This document shows positions 3,585-44,690 of a stretch of DNA of 47,591 bases, piece by piece. Each line of letters begins with the position of its first letter. The first letter of the stretch is position 1. Both the position numbers and the translations under genes were made by a program. This DNA is from a virus (lineage: Duplodnaviria > Heunggongvirae > Uroviricota > Caudoviricetes). The notes under the pieces were generated by a model. It searched no databases, was not told the DNA's origin, and saw only the letters and a list, made by a program, of their open reading frames with translations. Location: the IMG/VR virus record IMGVR_UViG_3300045988_142058, one strand, 5' to 3'.

Positions 3585-4048
3585 AATAATTTACCTAACG
3601 CACTTCTAGTTTTTGACTCTATATTGCCAGTAATATCAACTAATGCTTCTTTCAGAGAGGTCTGTCCGACTTCCTGTAATTTAATGCCAACGATAATCAC
3701 TCGTGGATTCCCAGTTGGACCGAAATAAGTCCATGATTCCTCTATATCTGTAATTATAAAATTACCAAAATACTGAATGCCAATTACAACAGGATTTACT
3801 TCCTGAATTGATTGCATTGTCCTAAGTAATGAAAGCGCAGCCAATGGAACAATGCCAAGTGTTGTATCCAACCGCATATTAAAACTAACTTCATCCAGAT
3901 CTGGACCTATATCCTCCAGAACAGGTTTAAGCCCAATAACATCATGGCGCGCTACACGACGCTTTGACGTCCTTTTAAAATTGTTGAACGTATTCACCAC
4001 TATTGATGAGGCAACAAAAGGCATTGTACCAAGCATACCCACAATCAT
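3581..4048 (-). CDS. Hypothetical tail/baseplate-associated protein
   Basis: 155 aa, translationally coupled within the baseplate cluster. Confidence 0.4.
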   Translation of the reverse strand: MIVGMLGTMPFVASSIVVNTFNNFKRTSKRRVARHDVIGLKPVLEDIGPDLDEVSFNMRLDTTLGIVPLAALSLLRTMQSIQEVNPVVIGIQYFGNFIITDIEESWTYFGPTGNPRVIIVGIKLQEVGQTSLKEALVDITGNIESKTRSALGKLL

Positions 4049-4665
4049 GCCTGAGCCTCCGTTGTCGGAGCGTATTCCCCCTGAGCTGTGTGATGGTGGC
4101 CTTTAGATTTAATCCCATCAACATCTATATCACCATCAACAACCTTAACATTCCCAGAAATTGTAGCTGCAACACCTCCAGCAGAAGATCCTTTCATTCC
4201 ACCTTTGAAGGTTAGTAATCCTTCAACTGTAGCATTTCCGGTAATGATGGTTTCTGGAGCATCAATAGTTACGGTTCCTGTAGCCTTAACGGTTACATCT
4301 CCGACAGCATCAACAAGGAGTAAATTAGATTCTCTGTCTATCTCAATACGAGTTCCGTTATTAAATCTAATGACGCGTTTATTAACAGTATTAGATGGCG
4401 GCTTCTGTGTTTCATCATAAAAACTACCAAGAATAAAACCTTGTTGCGGCCCTGCGGGATGAAAGATACACAAAACTTGCTCACCAATATCTGGCATCCA
4501 GTAATCAGCATTCTTATCTGTATTTTTCACAATAACTGATAACTTTGCCGAAGTGACGTTATCCTGATCATCGAAAGTAACTCTTGCTGTAACATCACCA
4601 TCATCAATATCAGAAACAACGCCAACTCTTATAATCTGACGTAATAATGTTTCTAAATCATTCAT
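4045..4665 (-). CDS. Baseplate spike/assembly protein V-like
   Basis: 206 aa; N-terminal OB-like region (VGVVSDIDDGDVTARVTF), Gly-rich beta-helical C-terminus with HHH. Confidence 0.6.
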   Translation of the reverse strand: MNDLETLLRQIIRVGVVSDIDDGDVTARVTFDDQDNVTSAKLSVIVKNTDKNADYWMPDIGEQVLCIFHPAGPQQGFILGSFYDETQKPPSNTVNKRVIRFNNGTRIEIDRESNLLLVDAVGDVTVKATGTVTIDAPETIITGNATVEGLLTFKGGMKGSSAGGVAATISGNVKVVDGDIDVDGIKSKGHHHTAQGEYAPTTEAQA

Positions 4666-4667
4666 AA

Positions 4668-5669
4668 TTAATACCCATTAATTACTCTTCGGATATCAAT
4701 CGAGGTGGTATAACCACTAACCCCAATTGAATGCACAGCTTTCGATATAAGATATTTTCCAGAAAATGAACCGAATCCGTCCAGATTTATAGTTACACCA
4801 GCTACCAATCTGGTGTCTCCAACCAATACTAAAGATCCGGTATTTTGATATCTATTTTTAAGCCGCAAAGCAGCCTTTGCCTTACGTTTTGCTTCATCTA
4901 AATTAGCTACCAGTTTTCTTATCTTAAGATTCGACCCTTCTTCTACGGATGGATCTACCCAAGTATACGAAAGCGACTTTCTTTTTTTAGGTACGCGATA
5001 TTTGCACGTGCAACTTTTATACAAATCTGTAGATTGTGTGCTAAAGCTATATCTGATTATCTCATCAATACCTAACGTAAGCGTAGCGATAGGATCTTTT
5101 TGCTCAAACATCTCTTGAGCAAATATTATTAATTGGCTATCAGTGACCTTTAACGACAACCCTTCATCCTGGCAAAGTCGATGGAGAAATTTTAAATCGC
5201 TTTCCTCCATTTGATCTTCACGCGCATAATATGGATTACTATCACCATCAATAAGAAACAACAGTTCAAGGTTAGCTAATTTAGCTATAGAAGTTGCTAT
5301 ATCTTTAAGAGTTGTTTTTTCCCATGCATTACTTTTTAAATCACGTCTAATGCCTGATGAAACAGGAACAGAAACAGCAGTCACCTCAACAACAGAAGGT
5401 GGTCCAGAGCAAGTTATGCCATCTACCTGGAATTTCCCGCACTCAAGGACGATTTGATTTATAGGCTTAAAGCTCAAATCAATAAAATCACCCTTTTTAG
5501 GTGTCCAGTCTCCAGACCATTTCCCATCATCATTTTTTAATATAATAGAAATATCATCGACCTGACCATCTTCATTATCTGTATAAGACATTGACAAAAC
5601 ATCAGGTGACATATGAGCGGTAATATTTACATTCTGATATATAACATCAAAAAGCGTTTTACGTAACAC
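4668..5669 (-). CDS. Tail protein, P2 gpD-like
   Basis: 333 aa; follows tape measure and gpX-like gene as in P2-type tails. Confidence 0.5.
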   Translation of the reverse strand: MLRKTLFDVIYQNVNITAHMSPDVLSMSYTDNEDGQVDDISIILKNDDGKWSGDWTPKKGDFIDLSFKPINQIVLECGKFQVDGITCSGPPSVVEVTAVSVPVSSGIRRDLKSNAWEKTTLKDIATSIAKLANLELLFLIDGDSNPYYAREDQMEESDLKFLHRLCQDEGLSLKVTDSQLIIFAQEMFEQKDPIATLTLGIDEIIRYSFSTQSTDLYKSCTCKYRVPKKRKSLSYTWVDPSVEEGSNLKIRKLVANLDEAKRKAKAALRLKNRYQNTGSLVLVGDTRLVAGVTINLDGFGSFSGKYLISKAVHSIGVSGYTTSIDIRRVINGY

Positions 5670-5877
5670 TATTGCGTCTCCACGGAGGCAAATTGTTTAC
5701 TGATATTGGCATAACCGGAGCATCAGGAACTTTAAGAATAATTCCCGCAGAAAAAAGCACCGTGAAGCGGTGCTCAGTATTAGCATCAATAAGAAGATAA
5801 GACAGGTACTCATTACCATACAACTTTAACGCGATACTATCCCATGAGTCCCCTTGAACCGTTCTATAATCATCCAA
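5659..5877 (-). CDS. Tail protein X-like (LysM-like fold)
   Basis: 72 aa; YRTVQGDSWDSIALKLYG motif resembles P2 gpX/LysM; directly after tape measure. Confidence 0.45.
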   Translation of the reverse strand: MDDYRTVQGDSWDSIALKLYGNEYLSYLLIDANTEHRFTVLFSAGIILKVPDAPVMPISVNNLPPWRRNSVT

Positions 5878-8662
5878 AACTTAATCTCCGTTGTTGGAAC
5901 ATATGAGCACTCAATTTCTTCTCAAAATCAGAATATCCAGCATCTAATGCTCTTTTAGCTGCCGCCTCAGTTTCCTTTGGTGAACCAGCCGGAAGATTGA
6001 TTACAGGTGAATAGGTTATTCCACCAGTCACAGCGTTAACGTTCTGGCGAGGTCCAGAAGTCCCGGCGGCAGATATCCCGTGAGGTGATAAATTTGATTG
6101 CCCGAACTTGGTTGCTATTGCATTTTGTAAGCTGTTATTCCTGCTAACACCTGATGCCAGAGTAGTCATTATTGCACCACCTGACTTTGTTAGCTGTGAG
6201 AATGGACCTTTTTTCGCGTCAGAGAACGGTAAATACTCACGTACAGAAGAAAAAACGCCTTTCACTTCATTAATTAAAGCATTTGCTTTTGATTTTATCC
6301 CAGTGATTAACGTCTCAATTATTTTTGCACCTGACTCACTCCAGTTTATTCCAGATAAATAAGCCGTTACAGATTGGAATGCTCTTATAAAGAGTCCAAC
6401 TGGTGAAAAACGCATAAAAACAGATACCAGTGTATCTATGATTTTCTTTCCTGTTTCGCTCCAGTTAATGCCAGAAAGGTAATTTGTTGTAAGTTTAAAT
6501 GCTTTAATTAAGAACGGAAGCGGAGACATCCATTTAAAAGCACTAATTAATGTACTGTAAATTCTTACTCCTGCCGAACTCCAGTTTATGTTGGAAAGAT
6601 AATCCCATGCTTTACCAAACATAGATATAATCCATCCATTGAGGTCAAAGTTTAAGATAAAGTTTTTTATAGCCTCAAATGATTTAACTGTATATTCCTT
6701 AACAGAAGGCCAAACTCTGACAGCATAATCTCTGATCTTATCCCAATTCTGATAGAGCAATATTCCTGCGGCAACCAGTGCAGATATAGCCATCTGAATC
6801 CACCCGAAGGGTGTTAGCTTTGTCGCTACAGATAAAGCCAGCATAGCTACCCTACACGCTATAACCACACTTTTCATGGTTAGAAACGCACCTGCCGCCA
6901 TCACAATCTGAGACACAAAATTGGGGTTGTTAGCTACAAATTCACTAATTTTTGTAATCAGCGGAACCAAAACACTAAGCGCGGCATTCAAAGCTGGTTG
7001 CAAGGCCTGACCAAAACTTAATGATGCATTGCTAGCCTGAATACGTAATTGTTTCAATCGCTCCGCATTGTCTTTCGTTATATTGGCAAAATCGCGGTCA
7101 ATAACAGCACTTCCAGCCCCAAGAGATGTTGCTTTGATTCTCTGGTATTCCTTCCAGTTTTGAATCATCGGACGAACAAAGTTCTGAACCTGCATATCGC
7201 CAAATAGCTCACCAAGTAACTTCTGATCTCCGTTCTTAGTCATTTTCATGACAGAATGCATTGCAGCTTCGAATGGATTCTTCCCTTTTTTCTGCGCTGT
7301 TGTGACAATTTTATATAAATCTACACCGAAATTTTTCTTTGCTTTTTTTAGTGTTTCAGGGGAAAGTATTTTCGCCAAAAAGTTGTTCATATTATTAGCA
7401 GCCTCATCCGAAGTTGCAGCACCTTTGCGAGCTATCTGCAAAGCTGCCCCCATCGTCGCGGCGGCTTCTTTACCTCCCATTTTTAATGCCTGGAACTGAG
7501 CACCAAGCACAGGAAGATTTTTGGCCATATCTTTAAATTCAAAGTTTCCCTCTTTCCCTGCCTGAACCAGAATCCCCATTGCAGACTTCATTTGAGATGG
7601 ATCAATCTTCAATGAGTCACTTAATGTAAATGATGCTTTCGAGACATCGAGGATATCAGAGCCAGTAGCTGTAGCTGTTCGCCCAATAGTTAGTAGATTC
7701 GCCTGAGCCTCTTTATAATCCTGCCCAGCAGCGACGAGAAAACCCTGAGCGGCCTGAATATCAGATGCAAACTGGTTGGTGGCCGTTCCGGTAACAAGCA
7801 TCGCCTGCCCCATCGCCTGAACTTCTTCCGGCTTCATATCTGCCGTAAGACCAATCATTTTGTTTTCACGATTGAAATTTGCTGCATTGTTAGCAGCAGC
7901 AAATGCACCAGCCGCTACAGCACCAGTTTGTAATCCTGACCTTACAAGTTGACTCTTTGCCTCACCAAGATGCTCTCGCTTCAATTCACGCTGCCTTTCC
8001 AACGCGCGGTTTAACTCCTCCTGAGCACGTTTTACTGCAAGAACATTTTTCCGTGCTTCAGCCAACGCATTTTTATAGCTGTTAATTTTATCAATACGTT
8101 GTTTTTCTAATGCCCGGTTAAGTTCCTCCTGCTGTTTTTTCACTTGCTGAACATTTGCTCTGGCTAAAGCCAAAGCTGTTCTGTAGCGGTTAACCTGCTC
8201 AACGCTACGGGCCTGAGCCTCACGATTACGATCAATGCTTGCTTTAAGCTCTTTCTCTCTTGAGGCCAAAGCTCTGGCAGATGTATCAGCTCCCTGATAC
8301 GCAGACTTTAAAGCGGCCAGTTCTTCACGCTGAGAACGTAGTGATGCTCGTAAATTTGATGAATGTGTTTTTGCCTTCTCAAAGTCACGAAGCATCGCTC
8401 TGGTTGGATTGGCCGTGTTTTTTATTTGCTTCTGTAACTCTTCAACGCGAGCGGCAGCTTTATGATATTCGAGGGCAGTCTGTCCAACCTTTACTTTTAC
8501 AGATTGTAGCTTTTGAATTTCCCCATGTTCTTTCGTTAATCCAGCAAGCTCGGCATTTAATTTAGCAACAGCCTGATTAGCTGTAGTAAAACTTTTGGGG
8601 AGAGAGGCGGCAACTTTGCCGCCAATTTCAAAAGCCAGCTTAAAGTTCTTATTGCTGGCCAT
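5870..8662 (-). CDS. Tail tape measure protein
   Basis: 930 aa; coiled-coil N-terminal third with repeated QQVKKQQEELNRALE segments, hydrophobic middle, repeated W-rich C-terminal motifs; follows chaperone pair. Confidence 0.8.
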   Translation of the reverse strand: MASNKNFKLAFEIGGKVAASLPKSFTTANQAVAKLNAELAGLTKEHGEIQKLQSVKVKVGQTALEYHKAAARVEELQKQIKNTANPTRAMLRDFEKAKTHSSNLRASLRSQREELAALKSAYQGADTSARALASREKELKASIDRNREAQARSVEQVNRYRTALALARANVQQVKKQQEELNRALEKQRIDKINSYKNALAEARKNVLAVKRAQEELNRALERQRELKREHLGEAKSQLVRSGLQTGAVAAGAFAAANNAANFNRENKMIGLTADMKPEEVQAMGQAMLVTGTATNQFASDIQAAQGFLVAAGQDYKEAQANLLTIGRTATATGSDILDVSKASFTLSDSLKIDPSQMKSAMGILVQAGKEGNFEFKDMAKNLPVLGAQFQALKMGGKEAAATMGAALQIARKGAATSDEAANNMNNFLAKILSPETLKKAKKNFGVDLYKIVTTAQKKGKNPFEAAMHSVMKMTKNGDQKLLGELFGDMQVQNFVRPMIQNWKEYQRIKATSLGAGSAVIDRDFANITKDNAERLKQLRIQASNASLSFGQALQPALNAALSVLVPLITKISEFVANNPNFVSQIVMAAGAFLTMKSVVIACRVAMLALSVATKLTPFGWIQMAISALVAAGILLYQNWDKIRDYAVRVWPSVKEYTVKSFEAIKNFILNFDLNGWIISMFGKAWDYLSNINWSSAGVRIYSTLISAFKWMSPLPFLIKAFKLTTNYLSGINWSETGKKIIDTLVSVFMRFSPVGLFIRAFQSVTAYLSGINWSESGAKIIETLITGIKSKANALINEVKGVFSSVREYLPFSDAKKGPFSQLTKSGGAIMTTLASGVSRNNSLQNAIATKFGQSNLSPHGISAAGTSGPRQNVNAVTGGITYSPVINLPAGSPKETEAAAKRALDAGYSDFEKKLSAHMFQQRRLSFG

Positions 8663-8667
8663 TAGTA

Positions 8668-8850
8668 TTAATCCTCATTAAACACGTCAATCCATGCGAC
8701 GATTCGCCTCAACCGAAGCGAAAGCCAGTAGGATATAGGTGTTGATTGAGATGATTGAGATAGAGAACTCGCGGCCCTCATTATTTGCTTATCAATAGGT
8801 TTTTGCTCATCAAAACCTACGAGAGCAAAAAATTCTGTACCTTTTGGCAA
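8668..8850 (-). CDS. Frameshift extension of tail assembly chaperone (E'-like, -1 frame)
   Basis: -1 frame ORF overlapping 3' end of 8817..9098; reading FFALVG... after slip at heptamer 8826..8832. Confidence 0.5.
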   Translation of the reverse strand: MPKGTEFFALVGFDEQKPIDKQIMRAASSLSQSSQSTPISYWLSLRLRRIVAWIDVFNED

Positions 8851-9098
8851 ACTTTAACAAAGTCTTTCGCTGGCAATCCATTCAGATACTCTATCGGACG
8901 GCCAATACAGCGAGCAGCCAGAGCAACGTGGACTTTATGATCAAGTGATGTTTGAACTGTAACATGCCCTTGAGATTGTAGTAAGTCCGATACTTCTAAA
9001 ATATCGCTGCCTTTTAGGTTGTCTAAATCAAGGTTGAGTTCAGTCACCGGCTCGAAGTCTTCAAAACGATACTCTTTACTTAATTTAACGGTTTCCAT
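8817..9098 (-). CDS. Tail assembly chaperone, gpE-like
   Basis: 93 aa between tube and tape measure; ends in slippery T_TTT_TTG. Confidence 0.55.
   Translation of the reverse strand: METVKLSKEYRFEDFEPVTELNLDLDNLKGSDILEVSDLLQSQGHVTVQTSLDHKVHVALAARCIGRPIEYLNGLPAKDFVKVCQKVQNFLLS
8826..8832 (-). other. Putative -1 programmed frameshift slippery heptamer T_TTT_TTG
   Basis: Zero-frame codons aaT TTT TTG two codons before chaperone stop; -1 frame continues 58 codons to 8668. Confidence 0.5.
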
Positions 9099-9107
9099 TT
9101 TGTCACC

Positions 9108-9629
9108 TTATAAACCTAAATCATCACGAACGCTTTTTAATATATCTTCACCATCGAAGATACAAATAAAGTTCAATTTATCAATTTCCAGGACTTCTTT
9201 TCCATCAATAAATAATTTGATATAGAGAACTTCAAATTCATTCTCTGAATCAGTAGCCTTTGCCACCTGTAGCGAACCTAAATCCAGTTTTTTAGGGTTT
9301 AGCTTCATTGAAGCCCGAATGGGAACCGTTTTATATTTTCCTGTTCCGGCATCATAAACCTGCTGGCTACCACGAAAATCTACCTGATGCGATGAGGATA
9401 GAAATAATTTTGTACCAGCAGAGGTTAGGGTTCGCCATTTAAGAGAGACGGTCATTGGTTTGAAATGCCCCAGCGTTCCGCTCTCAAGCTCTCCAGCAAT
9501 ACCTGCACCACTAACTGTCTCTGTCATCATCTCGATTGATGGCAGCTTTGCGTCAGCAACACCGATAATACGGTTTCCCTCACCGTATACTGTAAAGTTA
9601 ATAAGTCTCTCAGGAATTTGATTGCTCAA
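9108..9629 (-). CDS. Tail tube protein
   Basis: 173 aa immediately downstream of sheath gene. Confidence 0.6.
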   Translation of the reverse strand: MSNQIPERLINFTVYGEGNRIIGVADAKLPSIEMMTETVSGAGIAGELESGTLGHFKPMTVSLKWRTLTSAGTKLFLSSSHQVDFRGSQQVYDAGTGKYKTVPIRASMKLNPKKLDLGSLQVAKATDSENEFEVLYIKLFIDGKEVLEIDKLNFICIFDGEDILKSVRDDLGL

Positions 9630-9645
9630 AGCAACCTCCTATTAT

Positions 9646-11109
9646 TTATTCAGAAAACAAGTTCAGCAGATAATCAGGATTATATTCCATGACGAACTCT
9701 ATATCTCTGGCAGGTGAGAATGGTGTCATTTTTACATGGAATTTAACAATCCCGTCCATCAATGACGTAATCGTGTTTTCAGACTGATCAAAGGTAACAA
9801 CACCACCTGCAATATCCTGATTACCTGTGAGGCCGTTAAGCCAAATATTCGCACTTGTAACAATCGATTCAATTAATCGACGGTTTGCAGGATTGTCTAT
9901 TTTTGACCAATGCGAAAGAATTAACGTATTACCCACCCAGTTAAACATACGTCGGCAAACACGAAATGCGTCTTTGGGGTCTGTAGATGTTGGATAAATA
10001 GCATTACGGTTTCCCCATGATTTCCAACCATCAAAATTAAGGCTTGTTACAATCCCCTGTCCATTTAAGTAGTTTGCCTGGCTAATGTTAAGCCATACTT
10101 CACTGCCATCTTTACGTACAGCACCGTCCATCTGTAGTTTTATATTTGACGGAGAACGTGATGGAATATCACCATACTGACTATCCAGCAAGCATGTTGC
10201 GGCCGCTAAATGGGTTGAGTGATGGTAAATATTGTCACCAAGTTTCACCATCGGCCAGCACACTGTCTGGTTAGCGGCCATGTGATTATTGTTCTGTTTC
10301 CATTCAGGAACAGCCGAGTAATCACTGATAGTAGATTTATCGGTCGGCGCATCCGTTATAGCTTCTGCTTTGAACAATTCACTAATCAGCGCGGCTTTAG
10401 CCGCCATTAGCTGACCAACTTCACTATCAGAACTAAATCCAGGTGCAATCACTTGTCCAGGAACTAACTTGAAGCGGGGATACACATCTGACAGTAACTC
10501 AAGCCCTGTATTGGCTTTAGTGTTGGAATCCACACCACCGATAATGTCATTTTTAGTTACGGCACCGGGATCAAGATGCGTATAACTAACCTTAAGAGTA
10601 GCGTCTTTTTCGGTAATTTTTCCTCCGCTAATAGCTGTAATGACCGTATAGCCATTATCATCCAGCGCCAGCACATAATCGGTATCAACCGTTAACCCAG
10701 GCGAATCACCATCTGCTTTTTTCACAACAACAGATTTATATAAGACACCATCGTTAGAGAGCGTACCTTTCCCGCCAGAAAGTTTTACTAACTCATCAGT
10801 AACGTCTTTCTTATGCTTTGCTGGATCAAGCACATTGATAAATACAACTGGCGCAACACCATATATTCCAAATGCGACTTTAATTACTTCGCTTAAAGTA
10901 TATTTCTCGAAGTTTGTGCTATATCCTATTTTAGATACGGCCTCTGCGTATGTATAAGCAATGATAGGTTTATTTACCGCTGAGGCTGGATCTTCTAACT
11001 GATTAACAGGAGCCGTACCAAATGCGACAATCAACCCAGCACTAACTTGCACTGGAGGAGTTATAGATGTAGCCAGCTCAGATATATAAATACCGTGGCG
11101 ATATCCCAT
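9646..11109 (-). CDS. Contractile tail sheath protein
   Basis: 487 aa; size and position (before tube, chaperone, tape measure) typical of sheath. Confidence 0.75.
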   Translation of the reverse strand: MGYRHGIYISELATSITPPVQVSAGLIVAFGTAPVNQLEDPASAVNKPIIAYTYAEAVSKIGYSTNFEKYTLSEVIKVAFGIYGVAPVVFINVLDPAKHKKDVTDELVKLSGGKGTLSNDGVLYKSVVVKKADGDSPGLTVDTDYVLALDDNGYTVITAISGGKITEKDATLKVSYTHLDPGAVTKNDIIGGVDSNTKANTGLELLSDVYPRFKLVPGQVIAPGFSSDSEVGQLMAAKAALISELFKAEAITDAPTDKSTISDYSAVPEWKQNNNHMAANQTVCWPMVKLGDNIYHHSTHLAAATCLLDSQYGDIPSRSPSNIKLQMDGAVRKDGSEVWLNISQANYLNGQGIVTSLNFDGWKSWGNRNAIYPTSTDPKDAFRVCRRMFNWVGNTLILSHWSKIDNPANRRLIESIVTSANIWLNGLTGNQDIAGGVVTFDQSENTITSLMDGIVKFHVKMTPFSPARDIEFVMEYNPDYLLNLFSE

Positions 11110-21251: not shown

Positions 21252-22631
21252 CTACTTAATCAACGGCCGGAAAGCCGCCAACACATCATCAGATCGTCCG
21301 ATTGTTGAACCACCAGGCAACGGCAACTCAAACTCAAAACGAACAGCTTTCTCCAGACTCTCCCAGCGAAGAGAATCATCGTTAATAACGTGCAAATACC
21401 AGCTCTTACCGTTAAATACCGACCGCTTTATTCTGAAGCTATGCTCACGGCACAATTGCTTCACTTCCTCATCAGAATGAAACTTCTGATAAAACCAGTG
21501 TCCCTTCCGGTACAAAGCAGAAAAACCGTTATGGTCAATAAAATAAAGCCGGCTTATAGAGCTAGCAGCTTGCGTTCGTTTAAGCACACTCTCCAGCTCT
21601 CCACGACTACGGCCAGAAAAGAATATTGACCCACCAGCTTTACACAGGCCTTTCAGAACCGTCAGAACGGACCATTCAGCCTCGACACTATCGACCGAGT
21701 TCAAAACGCTATCGCAAATCACGTAGTCGTAACGCCCTCGCGTTTTTAAGTCGTCCACCAGCGTATCAATCATTCGGTTTGTTGCAGCCCTATCCAGAGT
21801 GTTTCCAGCGCCCTTACGGCGGAAAAGCTCGAGATCATGCAGGTTATATCCCTTTGCCCTGAGCATTCGCGCGTAGTCTCCCTGCCCCGAACCAAAATCA
21901 ATTCCTCTTGGCGTCTTGGCAATGATCGGGAGGATCAACGACTCATACAGGTTTGATTTCAGGCTGCCACCATTACGCAACCGCATAAGCTGCGCATACG
22001 TCTGGATGTATGTTGTTTTCTCCAGATGAGAATACTCAAATACACCATAAGTTTTATTCAGATAACTTTGGTATTTTTCCTTCTCAACATCAGGGATCAC
22101 AAACACCGTTAGCGGTGTGCGCGTCATCTTCGCTGCTAATGCATACTGAGCACAGTGAATAACCTCACCAGACTGAGTAGCAACACAACCACCCCACGGA
22201 CCATACTTGATAACCAGTTCCGCTATGTTCTTTCGAACATATGCCATTTTCGCGCGCATATTGCCTGAGATCTGGCTTGCCGATACCTGAACAAAACCAT
22301 GCTTATCTTCCAGACCGGACACCCTGCAACGCTCATCTCCGCTATCAAAATCCGTTCCGTTATGCAGTTGGTTAAACCGTACTTCGTCGTATACCGTCGT
22401 TTCACAGGGCAACACATACACCGCAGCACGCGTTATTCCCAACTTACGTAGCGCCTTCGTCCTTTGGTGTCCCGCCACCAGCAAATCGCCGCGCACTATC
22501 AATGGCTTCACAAGCCCCAGCTCCCTGACGCTTTCCGCCAGCCTCGCAAGATCATCCTCACCGATAAAACGCGGGTTATATTCCGCGCCGCGTAGGTGCG
22601 TTATGTCGTAATTCAGGTGAAGCATCAGCAC
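21252..22631 (-). CDS. ParB-domain / SAM-dependent DNA methyltransferase fusion
   Basis: 459 aa; N-terminal ParB-like (LVAGHQRTKA), C-terminal motif I-like IDFGSGQGDYA. Confidence 0.65.
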   Translation of the reverse strand: MLMLHLNYDITHLRGAEYNPRFIGEDDLARLAESVRELGLVKPLIVRGDLLVAGHQRTKALRKLGITRAAVYVLPCETTVYDEVRFNQLHNGTDFDSGDERCRVSGLEDKHGFVQVSASQISGNMRAKMAYVRKNIAELVIKYGPWGGCVATQSGEVIHCAQYALAAKMTRTPLTVFVIPDVEKEKYQSYLNKTYGVFEYSHLEKTTYIQTYAQLMRLRNGGSLKSNLYESLILPIIAKTPRGIDFGSGQGDYARMLRAKGYNLHDLELFRRKGAGNTLDRAATNRMIDTLVDDLKTRGRYDYVICDSVLNSVDSVEAEWSVLTVLKGLCKAGGSIFFSGRSRGELESVLKRTQAASSISRLYFIDHNGFSALYRKGHWFYQKFHSDEEVKQLCREHSFRIKRSVFNGKSWYLHVINDDSLRWESLEKAVRFEFELPLPGGSTIGRSDDVLAAFRPLIK

Positions 22632-35884: not shown

Positions 35885-36010
35885 ATATGATTATAGTTTT
35901 ATATAATTATATAAAACGCTTTTCATCCGCCAAAAAGTTGGTTATGCTTACCTCGTTCTATAAATATAGATTTATAGAATTATATAACCAAACACATGGA
36001 GTCTCGACAA

Positions 36011-36664
36011 ATGACTATCTCTGTAGGTATTTTCAACGGAAAAGGCGGCGTAACCAAATCAACAATTGCCCGTGCTTTAGCAGTTGCTTATGCAAAGGCT
36101 GGCTGGAATGTATGCCTGATCGATATGGATGTGCTTAACGGAACGGTAACGCGTTGGGTACAACGCAGAATGGCCAACAATATCGAACCAGCAATCGCGG
36201 CGCAGCCGTGCGGCACACCATCACAAGTCCAGAAAATCATCGAATCAGAAGTATACGACCTGGTTATCGTCGATGGCGGTGCCTACGCATCTGAATCAGT
36301 ACCGAAGCTCTCTGAATTTCTGGATATGGTTATTTTGCCAACCAGATTCTCTACCGATGACCTGGAAACCACCGTTAACACAGCTCATGGCATCGTTAAA
36401 AAGGGTGTGCCAATCAAGAAAATTTGCATGGTGTTCTCAGGCGCGGCTGAAAACGAAGCCGACTACATTGAAGCCCAAGAGTACCTGGCTAATACGCCAT
36501 ACTTTGTTGTCGATAAGTACATTCCCCACAAGCCAGCTCTGAGCAAAGCTCAGGATAAGGGCTTAAGCCTCATTGAGTGCTCATACGTTGCGCCACGCAA
36601 AAAGGCAGACGACGTTATTCAGGGGATTATCAACCAGCTTGAGGCTCTGACTACTGCCGCGTAA
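36011..36664 (+). CDS. parA: ParA-like partition ATPase (small, type Ib-like)
   Basis: Deviant Walker A FNGKGGVTKST; start at second ATG with GGAG RBS. Confidence 0.8.
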   Translation: MTISVGIFNGKGGVTKSTIARALAVAYAKAGWNVCLIDMDVLNGTVTRWVQRRMANNIEPAIAAQPCGTPSQVQKIIESEVYDLVIVDGGAYASESVPKLSEFLDMVILPTRFSTDDLETTVNTAHGIVKKGVPIKKICMVFSGAAENEADYIEAQEYLANTPYFVVDKYIPHKPALSKAQDKGLSLIECSYVAPRKKADDVIQGIINQLEALTTAA

Positions 36665-38082: not shown

Positions 38083-38274
38083 ATGACAAACCTACCCCAT
38101 GACTATTACGTCAACCTCGTAAAGATCCTTCTCAAGAAAGCCTCATACGCCGATAAATTCCGCCTGGCTGAAATCATCGAGCGCGAAGCTATGCGCATCG
38201 CCAGCAACGATAACGCTGTTTCTGACGCAAAAATCTCCCTCGTAACCAAAGTAGTTATGGGAGGTGCAAAATGA
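38083..38274 (+). CDS. Hypothetical small protein upstream of antirepressor
   Basis: 63 aa, GGAGA RBS, stop overlaps antirepressor ATG. Confidence 0.4.
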   Translation: MTNLPHDYYVNLVKILLKKASYADKFRLAEIIEREAMRIASNDNAVSDAKISLVTKVVMGGAK

Positions 38275-39452
38275 AAACGCTTCCGACCGTTAACACCCTA
38301 CAGCCTATCCTGCATAACCAGCTCCCCGTTATCACTACTGAACTACTGGCGCAATTGTATGGAACCGAGCGCCAACGTCTGACAAACAATTTCAATAGAA
38401 ACAAGGAACGTTTTATAGAAGGTAAACACTTTTTTAGGATAGAAGGTAAAGAGTTACGAGAGTTGAAGAACAAAAACTCTTTAAGAGTTCCTGTGAGAGT
38501 AGTTAACGAACCATCTTTAAGAGGGTTACAAATTCCCCCGAAAGTTCGCTCCCTCATCCTCTGGACAGAACGCGGGGCTGCACGTCACGCCAAAATGCTT
38601 GAAACTAACCAAGCGTGGGATGTGTTCGAACGGCTGGAAGACTGCTATTTCAACCAGAACGCACAAACGGCCGCGACCGTTACCGTCTCGCCAAGCAATG
38701 CTCGTGAGGTTGTCGATACGCTCAACGCCAAACCGATGTTTTACATTAAGGTGTGCAATAACGAGCCACTCACAACCTCAGCCGATGTTGCCCAGGCATT
38801 CAGCACCACAAACAATTCCATCGTTATGGCCATCGATGCGTTACGCATTCCTCGCACAGCTGCGGCGCGTCATTTCTTTAAAGAGCAACGACCGTTGGAA
38901 GGAAGCGACCGCGAAATAACAATCTATCGCATGACAAAAGACGGATTTACCTTGCTCATGGAGAGCATCGACGGTCCAAGCGTGAAAGATATCAAGCTGG
39001 CCTACATTGAAGCCTTTAACGCTATCAGCAGCGTGTTAAAAACACAGTACGAGCGTGATCTGGCTAAACGACTGTACCAAGAAAAAACGATTATCCGCGC
39101 GGCAACAGAGCATAATCGGCTATTAACGGAACCGAACTACAGGAAGGAACTAATCAAGGAGTTTGACAAGGCAACAGGGAAAACCAAAGCGGCGCTAAAT
39201 CTGCCAGCAATGACTCAGGAAAATGTGATATCAGCCTTACTTCTTGATCTGCTCAGAAACGCCAGAGCACTTATCAGCTTTGACGAAAACCTGAATCCTC
39301 AGCTCAAGCTACTACCACCGACAGGCAAAGTAGTCGACCAAGCTGATCACAACAGCATACTCAGCGTACTGGATGCAAACCTGCCAGCCAAGACACTACA
39401 GGATCTGATAAAAACATGTGCTGATAAGCTGGCACAGAAAAGCAGACCATAA
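38271..39452 (+). CDS. Antirepressor (ORF6N/ANT N-terminus, Rha-like C-terminus)
   Basis: 393 aa; N-terminal LPVITTELLAQLYGTERQRLTNNFNRNKERF; terminator after stop. Confidence 0.75.
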   Translation: MKTLPTVNTLQPILHNQLPVITTELLAQLYGTERQRLTNNFNRNKERFIEGKHFFRIEGKELRELKNKNSLRVPVRVVNEPSLRGLQIPPKVRSLILWTERGAARHAKMLETNQAWDVFERLEDCYFNQNAQTAATVTVSPSNAREVVDTLNAKPMFYIKVCNNEPLTTSADVAQAFSTTNNSIVMAIDALRIPRTAAARHFFKEQRPLEGSDREITIYRMTKDGFTLLMESIDGPSVKDIKLAYIEAFNAISSVLKTQYERDLAKRLYQEKTIIRAATEHNRLLTEPNYRKELIKEFDKATGKTKAALNLPAMTQENVISALLLDLLRNARALISFDENLNPQLKLLPPTGKVVDQADHNSILSVLDANLPAKTLQDLIKTCADKLAQKSRP

Positions 39453-43674: not shown

Positions 43675-44523
43675 TTAATGTTGGAGTGATTTCCAGGTCT
43701 TTCTTAACCTGTTATAACGCTGCTCAACGAGGGATCGTAAATATGCAAGGTCAGCTCCAGGATACATGCCATCAGCAAATTCCTGGCTAACCTCTCTAGT
43801 GATTTGATGACGAAGTTCGGCCTCTCCCTTTTCCCGAACAAGACGCGCAGCTCTCTCCGCTGCTTTCTGTTTTGCCTTTATCTCTCTGGCCGTCTTCCTC
43901 TGACGCCATACATTCTCCATCTGCTCCTGAATAACAATACGCTTATAATCAGCCTCCGTTATCGCTTTTTTAAGCCGTTCGCTATTCTTCGCATTGAAGT
44001 AATTAAGTTTCTGGCTAACCGCACGTCTCCATGCTTGTTCAGTAATACCAACGGTTTCCAGCAGTTGATCACGAATCTCTATTTTCGCTGGCCAATACTG
44101 TTTATTCACCCGATCCCAGCGACGTTCATAATCAATAAAACCTAACTCTTTCAGTTGCGACAACGCCCTTGTACAGCGCGTTATAGACTTGTTCCCAGCT
44201 TCGGATACGGTAGACAGGCCGCAAAAATCAGCCAACGCCTCAGCACTGGCCAGAACCCGCTTAGAAATGATGTTTACATGGTGCAAAATCGCAGCAATCA
44301 CAGCATTAATTGCCCGACGACGATGCTCGTTTATCCGGCGTTTCCGCTCTGACGGTTGATTAACGTAGAACGCAACCTCACACGTAAGATCACGACCATT
44401 AATGCGCTGTAAAGCATCAGATAACACCAGCGGCAGCTTGTGCGTATGGTGCTTTGGAGGCTGGAACTCCGGCGACAAATTACAAACGTAAGCTGAACGT
44501 AGAGACGGCATTGGTCTATCCAT
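43675..44523 (-). CDS. repA: Replication initiator RepA, IncFII RepA1-like
   Basis: ATG at 44523 (MDRPMPSLRS...); block ...ALADFCGLSTVSEAGNKSITRCTRALSQLKELGFIDY... matches IncFII RepA1 pattern CGL-T-S-AG--SITR-TRAL--L-ELG-I-Y (from memory). Frame open upstream to 44685. Confidence 0.8.
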   Translation of the reverse strand: MDRPMPSLRSAYVCNLSPEFQPPKHHTHKLPLVLSDALQRINGRDLTCEVAFYVNQPSERKRRINEHRRRAINAVIAAILHHVNIISKRVLASAEALADFCGLSTVSEAGNKSITRCTRALSQLKELGFIDYERRWDRVNKQYWPAKIEIRDQLLETVGITEQAWRRAVSQKLNYFNAKNSERLKKAITEADYKRIVIQEQMENVWRQRKTAREIKAKQKAAERAARLVREKGEAELRHQITREVSQEFADGMYPGADLAYLRSLVEQRYNRLRKTWKSLQH

Positions 44524-44535
44524 ATGTTCGCTCTT

Positions 44536-44650
44536 GCGTCCACGGAAAACCAACGTATAATGGGAGTTGTCGAGGCGCCCATGGATATGTTTGTTGGTTT
44601 TCCGTGGATGTCGCAAGAAGCCCGCAGATTTATCTGCGGGCTTTTTGTTT
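44536..44650 (+). ncRNA. Candidate CopA-like antisense RNA in repA leader
   Basis: Plus-strand intrinsic terminator (9-bp stem 44620..44628/44633..44641 + TTTTTGTTT) antisense to repA leader; 16-bp stem-loop 44539..44608. 5' end not defined. Confidence 0.4.
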
Positions 44651-44690
44651 CCATATCTGGTCGTTTTCCAACCAGACACCCACAATCGTA

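Follow-up and report, generated by a model that had tools for sequence, protein, structure and literature searches.

We asked whether the tail assembly chaperone gene of a 47,591-nucleotide phage genome (the window, by which we mean the whole stretch of DNA analysed) encodes one protein or two, the second being made by ribosomes that slip into the -1 frame just before the end of the gene. An earlier note on this DNA had read the locus in the second way, as the conserved two-product frameshift of long-tailed phages. Our analysis supports this: heptamer invariance among relatives, purifying selection on the -1 frame, the lack of a start of its own for that frame and the precedent of Vibrio phage X29 all point in the same direction. 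With a probability of roughly 90%, the sequence indicates programmed -1 ribosomal frameshifting in the tail assembly chaperone gene, of the kind known from E/E+E' of phage P2.

The genes concerned lie on the minus strand in the order sheath, tube, chaperone, -1 extension, tape measure, 72-aa protein, gpD-like and gpV-like. The tail sheath gene (487 aa, 9646..11109) was assigned from the ORF list and orthologue annotations only: ON470591 calls the orthologue 'tail sheath protein FI', and the PGAP name is 'phage tail sheath family protein'. A Pfam search returned no match for this ORF. The tail tube gene (173 aa, 9108..9629) matched PF04985 Phage_tube (FII) over its full length (E 3.5e-44), and the tape measure gene (930 aa, 5870..8662) matched PF10145 PhageMin_Tail (E 1e-20), which bears out the earlier placement of the chaperone between tube and tape-measure genes. 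These are followed by a small ORF (72 aa, 5877..5659) called 'tail protein X' in ON470591, a gpD-like gene (333 aa, 5669..4668; PF05954) and a gpV-like spike gene (206 aa, 4665..4045; PF04717). The presence of sheath and tube genes indicates that the phage of the window has a contractile tail. The window is the genome of a phage-plasmid, and its head module is lambda-like (capsid E, decoration protein, ClpP-type protease and gpA terminase).

The 0-frame product of the chaperone gene is 93 aa long (8817..9098, minus strand) and runs from ATG at 9098, which has an AAGGTG Shine-Dalgarno sequence 5 nt upstream, to TAG at 8817. It matched phrog_3140 'tail assembly chaperone' with E 1.3e-41 (143.8 bits), and the predicted fusion product scored higher against the same profile (158.5 bits), with residues 1-137 aligned. 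The match of the 93-aa product to PF10109 Phage_TAC_7, which Pfam describes as 'E, or 41 or 14', was borderline at 25.5 bits against a cut-off of 25, and covered residues 3-91 and profile positions 1-78 of 79; the fusion scored 23.8 bits. All seven clade members tested (7/7) matched PF10109, with E ~4e-5. PGAP names the 93-aa product 'phage tail assembly protein', and no NCBIfam model matched the short product, the extension or the fusion. The identification of the gene as a tail assembly chaperone, made earlier from the letters alone, thus stands on both the phrog_3140 and the PF10109 matches. The PF10109 profile ends at the proposed slip site, and it does the same in P2 gpE+E' (P2 residues 7-85, profile 2-78).

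The 3' end of the chaperone gene reads ...CAG AAT TTT TTG CTC TCG TAG, giving the C-terminus ...KVQNFLLS. The slippery heptamer T_TTT_TTG (8826..8832, minus strand), the proposed site of a tandem -1 slip, stands here in phase X_XXY_YYZ: TTTTTTG occupies 8832..8826 within the 0-frame codons AAT TTT TTG (8834..8826). Two sense codons, CTC and TCG, separate it from the TAG at 8819..8817, exactly as the earlier note had it. The -1 frame is open from 8850 to a TAA at 8670..8668, so its proposed end at 8668 was also exact. The length of 58 codons given for it was slightly off: counted from the first heptamer base there are 54 sense codons and a stop, 55 codons in all (8832..8668), and counted from the nearest upstream stop there are 60 sense codons. 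Translated from the heptamer, this -1 extension (the 'E-prime' or 'T' analogue, 8668..8832, minus strand) reads FFALVGFDEQKPIDKQIMRAASSLSQSSQSTPISYWLSLRLRRIVAWIDVFNED. The ATG of the tape-measure gene (8662), with a GAGGA Shine-Dalgarno sequence upstream, lies six bases past the TAA. The predicted frameshift fusion (8668..9098, minus strand) has 143 aa, of which residues 1-91 would come from the 0 frame and residues 92-143 from the -1 frame; at its junction ...KVQNFL would be joined to ALVGF..., and it would end in ...FNED. A tandem slip predicts the junction peptide VQNFLALVGFDEQK, and ...NFFALVGF... would point to a P-site-only or other slip.

By itself the heptamer counts for little, because TTTTTTG is present 18 times in the window (both strands). 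We therefore screened the 180 mechanical ORFs of at least 60 aa in the window for an in-phase X_XXY_YYZ heptamer no more than 20 codons from the stop, together with a -1 frame that stays open for 30 codons or more beyond the stop. Only two of the 180 passed, the chaperone locus and one artefact. The latter, ORF 38599..38919 (TTTAAAG), is a mechanical TTG ORF nested in a real gene (38271..39452; 393 aa, ORF6N/Rha domains), and that gene constitutes its '-1 frame'.

Conservation was examined at several distances. The window region was 100% identical to Yersinia phage vB_YpM_41 (OR545054) and 97% identical to vB_YpM_39 and two Escherichia phages, and a scan of viral contigs returned only copies 95-97% identical, too similar to inform. 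A protein search provided relatives at 69-75% protein identity from Hafnia, Klebsiella, Enterobacter, Salmonella and Citrobacter; their loci were fetched by exact-protein look-ups and have the identical gene order. Scanning genome contigs with the chaperone alignment gave zero confirmed loci. Among 1.84 billion representatives, a profile search picked out 282 relatives (E <= 1e-3), many of them with an ...FLL motif near the C-terminus. The heptamer itself was compared in 14 loci including P2, plus Vibrio phage X29, with protein identity down to about 30%.

In all 14 loci and in X29, the phase of the heptamer and its position near the chaperone stop were invariant, and only its last base varied. 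The distance from the heptamer to the end of the chaperone stop was 16 nt in the closer relatives checked, in the distant relatives L023 and L024 and in X29, and 22 nt in the distant relative L022. L022 carries T_TTT_TTA in the same phase, with a -1 extension of 57 codons ending at the tape-measure start; L024 carries T_TTT_TTG in the same phase, with an extension of 55 codons that also ends there; and L023 has T_TTT_TTG in the same phase on a contig too short to show the whole extension. Among the closer relatives, the codons flanking TTTTTTG differ. Across the 14 loci, the codon preceding TTT encodes N, S, R, T or G and its third base is always T; the Phe of the heptamer is always TTT, and the Leu is always TTG or TTA. 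Three bases of the heptamer are thus fixed by synonymous choice alone, which shows that the heptamer is under selection at the nucleotide level.

A conserved run of this kind could act on the polymerase instead of the ribosome. On this reading of the locus as transcriptional slippage, RNA polymerase would add an extra U on the T6 run, and the resulting U7 mRNAs would encode the fusion with the ribosome unshifted. Efficient transcriptional slippage in bacteria usually needs a run of ~8-9 or more A/T, however, and the run here is only 6 T. The six-T homopolymer is conserved in every relative, either mechanism predicts that the run and the frame after it are kept, and transcriptional realignment is a documented route of bacterial recoding (PMC5009743). 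Yet the run always stands in X_XXY_YYZ phase and is always followed by G or A, and for the same site in P2 both the record's annotation and PMC3091744 speak of a translational frameshift. We consider transcriptional slippage very unlikely at this locus, and ribosomal frameshifting the better account of the conserved heptamer.

Whether the -1 frame beyond the chaperone stop is coding was analysed in the window and in those relatives at 69-75% identity, eight in number, for which enough downstream sequence exists. The -1 ORF was open in all of them (8/8 and the window), was 54-61 codons long and contained whole-codon indels only; in the relatives, its end abuts or overlaps the tape-measure ATG. 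Past the chaperone stop, variable sites were distributed over the three codon positions of the -1 frame as 28/14/42, and the pooled pN in this frame was 0.20 vs a pS of 0.63. The corresponding pN/pS values in the other two frames were 0.29/0.29 and 0.34/0.15, with 2-7 stops. An open frame and a pN/pS signal were thus found in the -1 frame only, which shows that the stretch is protein-coding in that frame and that the -1 extension is under purifying selection. Since both heptamer and frame are conserved in relatives, a chance arrangement is dismissed.

A coding -1 ORF could still be a separate small gene that has its own start and forms no fusion. Two start codons come into question: TTG at 8850, giving 60 aa, and ATG at 8781..8779, giving a protein of 37 aa (MRAASS...). 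Annotators have called the ORF as a stand-alone gene, with phrog_30074 matching residues 1-60 (E 1.7e-38), and nr holds a 37-aa 'hypothetical protein' that begins at the internal Met, a residue invariant in the alignment. Nevertheless, neither a conserved start codon nor a Shine-Dalgarno sequence for the -1 ORF was found in the window and relatives. A Shine-Dalgarno sequence precedes the starts of the chaperone and tape-measure genes but neither of the two candidates; L014 and L015 have CTG in place of the TTG; and the -1 frame of most relatives is open for only 7-19 codons before the heptamer. Furthermore, the residues between the heptamer and the internal Met are conserved at the protein level (VG[FL] and PID.Q), and a separate gene leaves the synonymous-site conservation of the heptamer unexplained. 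Taken together, these observations make an independent gene very unlikely. The last alternative, that 8668..8816 is a non-coding spacer in which heptamer and open frame are coincidental or a decaying, functionless remnant, fits the unannotated 155-nt stretch in deposited records and the 18 occurrences of TTTTTTG in the window, but is effectively refuted by a pN/pS well below 1 in the -1 frame only, by an open frame with whole-codon indels in eight relatives and openness in more distant ones, and by invariant synonymous sites in the heptamer.

Under programmed frameshifting, most ribosomes on the 93-aa chaperone gene would terminate at the TAG at 8819..8817. A minority would slip back by one base at U_UUU_UUG, with the peptidyl-tRNA-Phe on UUU and the aminoacyl-tRNA-Leu on UUG, and would then read the -1 frame to the TAA at 8670..8668, yielding the 143-aa fusion ...KVQNFL-ALVGFDEQK...FNED. 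If the two products work like lambda gpG/gpGT and P2 gpE/gpE+E', the N-terminal domain common to both would coat the tape-measure protein, whose gene comes directly after. The C-terminal extension, present in the minor product only, would bring in tube subunits, and how often ribosomes slip would determine the proportion of short to long product. The ribosomal nature of the shift, its efficiency and the roles of both products are what we infer from these systems.

P2 is among the closest known systems; its tail genes form the FETUD operon, in the order FI-FII-E-E'-T-U-D. According to a passage of PMC3091744 that cites Christie et al. 2002, P2 shifts at TTTTTTG to make E (91 aa) and E+E' (142 aa), and GenBank AF063097 annotates a '-1 translational frameshift' for gpE+E'. 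The window resembles P2 in its contractile tail and in the order of sheath, tube, chaperone, -1 extension and tape measure. In both, the PF10109 domain ends at T_TTT_TTG in identical phase, the local motif is K-V-x-x-F-L, and AAGGT lies 6 nt upstream of the heptamer. The product sizes are close (91/142 aa in P2 vs 93/143 aa in the window), the extension ends at the tape-measure start, and neither has a conserved downstream hairpin. The two differ in that the stop comes 6 codons after the heptamer in P2 and 2 in the window, in that the window's extension lacks the PF06528 domain, and in that the window is a phage-plasmid with a lambda-like head module and not a P2-like genome. Protein similarity between the window and P2 gpE+E' was not significant by BLASTP (E 5.2), nor was that between the clade profile and P2 E+E' by hhalign (E 0.19); homology to P2 therefore rests on the shared PF10109 match and the architecture.

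Lambda G/GT offers a more distant parallel. Lambda is a siphovirus, and its slip heptamer is G_GGA_AAG. The layout is that of the window: overlapping ORFs, placed after the major tail (or tube) gene and before the tape-measure gene, give two products with a common N-terminus, through a -1 slip at a heptamer close to where the first ORF ends. Sequence similarity to the window is not detectable. PMC5009743 describes the lambda-type logic, in which the short form is abundant, the long form is rare and both are absent from the virion, and summarises Levin et al. 1993 and Xu, Hendrix & Duda 2004, 2013 and 2014 on lambda gpG/gpGT and the conserved tail-chaperone frameshift of long-tailed dsDNA phages. 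In lambda the ratio (~30:1) and the binding partners have been established; for the window we only infer them. Because the window's phage has a contractile tail, with sheath and tube, P2 E/E+E' is the closer analogue.

A link at the sequence level is provided by Vibrio phage X29 / phi 2 (NC_024369.2), whose chaperone is 44% identical to that of the window. Two products are annotated in its record, a 'lambda gpG analog' and, as a joined protein of 147 aa, a 'lambda gpGT analog'. The X29 gene ends AAT TTT TTG AAC GCA TAG, that is, TTTTTTG, two codons and TAG, as in the window. The extensions are of comparable length and share a motif (TPIPYWM..L..LI.F vs TPISYWL..L..IV.W), and that of X29 also stops just short of the tape-measure gene. 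Host and genome type differ, and the frameshift is annotated in X29 but unannotated in the window's group.

The extension falls outside the P2 family model. PF06528 (Phage_P2_GpE) gave zero matches in it, even at E up to 10, and was absent from 7/7 clade fusions, whereas P2 E+E' scores 76.3 bits. The extension did match phrog_30074, a 62-position profile with no assigned function, over residues 1-60 with E 1.7e-38; in nr its one entry is the 37-aa protein mentioned above. When the fusion was modelled with AlphaFold2, the mean pLDDT was 87, with a shallow alignment over the extension, and the model predicted two strands followed by four helices in the N-terminal part and two more helices in the extension. 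No meaningful match in the PDB was found by sequence-profile search or by Foldseek of the model. In BFVD the best match of the model was a 147-aa viral protein (142 columns aligned, 36% identity, E 3.7e-10), and the next matches were proteins named tail assembly chaperone.

What might stimulate slippage was considered on both sides of the heptamer. Upstream, a Shine-Dalgarno-like element, AAGGT (8839..8843, minus strand), lies 6 nt before the heptamer and is a candidate stimulator. At this spacing GGT does not vary among the 14 loci, P2 included, or in X29 (within AAGGT at 8843..8839 in the window), and the third base of the codon before the Val is always G, whether that codon encodes K, R, A, G or Q. 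One may speculate from this sequence pattern that the upstream GGU stimulates slippage. Its spacing of 6 nt is at the lower edge of the range of 6-17 nt upstream searched for such elements in PMC4066793.

Downstream, RNAalifold and single-sequence folds of the window and relatives found no conserved stimulatory RNA structure. RNAalifold on the relatives gave 7 weak pairs only, none adjoining the heptamer and none with compensatory changes, and the fold z-scores of the downstream segments of relatives were inconsistent, from -2.45 to +0.65. In the window a 9-bp hairpin with an 8-nt loop (GUAGGUUUU / AAAACCUAU; 8795..8820, minus strand) is predicted to start 5 nt past the heptamer; no function is ascribed to it, the relatives lacking the same helix. 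A downstream hairpin is absent in P2 and its Burkholderia relatives as well (PMC3091744).

The heptamer may itself be inefficient. U_UU.U_UU.G is not among the efficient E. coli heptamers, and it is missing from the 18 under-represented motifs (negative z-score) with >0.1% unstimulated slippage (PMC4066793). Slippage at U_UUU_UUG is thus possibly low, which would agree with the low-frequency need expected here, like the ~30:1 ratio of G to GT in lambda (PMC5009743). A joint proposal, which we regard as doubtful, is that the extension forms a distinct, uncatalogued 'T/E-prime' domain class and that a weak U_UUU_UUG is boosted by the close upstream Shine-Dalgarno-like element. The domain part of this proposal draws on the unmatched PF06528, the two predicted helices and an invariant TP.(S/T)YW...L motif held in common with X29. 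If true, the upstream element would replace a downstream RNA structure as stimulator.

Deposited records do not reflect the predicted fusion. The 143-aa product was annotated in none of the records checked, namely the Yersinia phages vB_YpM_39/41/44, the Escherichia phages vB_EcoM-613R2/473R2 and the RefSeq plasmid NZ_CP062206. PGAP called nothing between the 93-aa ORF and the tape-measure gene on plasmid copies, and the annotation tables viewed leave 155 nt as apparently non-coding. Among 5,426 complete E. coli genomes, 71 carry the locus on plasmids, and 62 plasmids in PLSDB have it as well. We found no literature on the window's phage group that covers product ratio, the need for both products or their absence from the virion.

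The class of frameshift is well known, and the finding leaves the understanding of tail assembly and of frameshifting unchanged. New are its occurrence in an unannotated, diverged phage-plasmid lineage and an extension outside the Pfam P2 GpE model. The main value of the finding is an annotation fix, in that the 143-aa fusion, a tail protein called essential, is missing from deposited records. In addition, this lineage keeps the P2-type TTTTTTG at synonymous positions and thereby offers a comparison set for the stimulators of a weak heptamer.

Upstream of the T_TTT_TTG heptamer (8832..8826, minus strand), the proposed -1 slip site in the 93-aa tail assembly chaperone ORF, a GGT lies 6 nt 5' of the slip site and was invariant in 14 of 14 loci compared, P2 among them, and also in Vibrio phage X29. 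The comparison was based on loci L007-L018, L022-L024 and L020, to which X29 (L025) was added. In the codon preceding the conserved Val, the amino acid varies while the third base is always G (AAG, AGG, GCG, GGG and CAG), and this G-ending codon creates a Shine-Dalgarno-like (A)AGGU(G), located in the window at 8839..8843 (minus strand). The (A)AGGU(G) is a possible upstream stimulator of frameshifting. Downstream, a 9-bp hairpin (GUAGGUUUU/AAAACCUAU; 8795..8820, minus strand) is predicted to start 5 nt 3' of the heptamer, and the TAG stop of the chaperone falls inside it. The hairpin is common to the window and its 97% relatives; when sought in the clade at ~70% identity, it was not conserved.

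Among the database relatives of the chaperone, the 116-aa P0010 and the 83-aa P0013 (E. coli plasmid ABMY55_24265) lose the frame mid-gene, which reflects either sequencing errors or decay of phage-plasmid copies of the tail module. About 12 distant family members of 165-210 aa (including P0018, P0019, P0021, P0024, P0026 and P0032) each gave two separate matches to the 93-position chaperone profile, suggesting that the chaperone domain has been duplicated in tandem in some phages.

The heptamer screen of the window returned one further candidate, ORF 38599..38919 (plus strand), with TTTAAAG 14 codons ahead of its stop. This was rejected as a screen artefact, being a mechanical TTG ORF that lies out of frame within a real 393-aa gene with ORF6N/Rha domains (38271..39452, plus strand).

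The 487-aa protein at the sheath position (11109..9646, minus strand) had no Pfam match at E <=0.01, yet the records of related elements name it 'tail sheath', which indicates a diverged sheath family. A 459-aa protein (21252..22631, minus strand) carries both a methyltransferase domain and, at its N-terminus, a ParB domain, and is predicted to be a ParB-like nuclease/methyltransferase fusion; such fusions are common in phages and plasmids.

The element in the window is a phage-plasmid. Besides a complete myovirus structural module, it encodes a replication protein of the IncFII RepA family (43675..44685, minus strand), which matches PF02387 at E 7.5e-44, as well as a ParA-type ATPase (35996..36664, plus strand). 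The tail locus is a 100% match to that of 'Yersinia phage vB_YpM_41', which was lytically isolated, and is also carried by 62 PLSDB plasmids of ~48-52 kb, all non-mobilizable (62/62). Across 5,426 complete E. coli genomes, the locus was present in 71, on plasmids in every case and on chromosomes in none.
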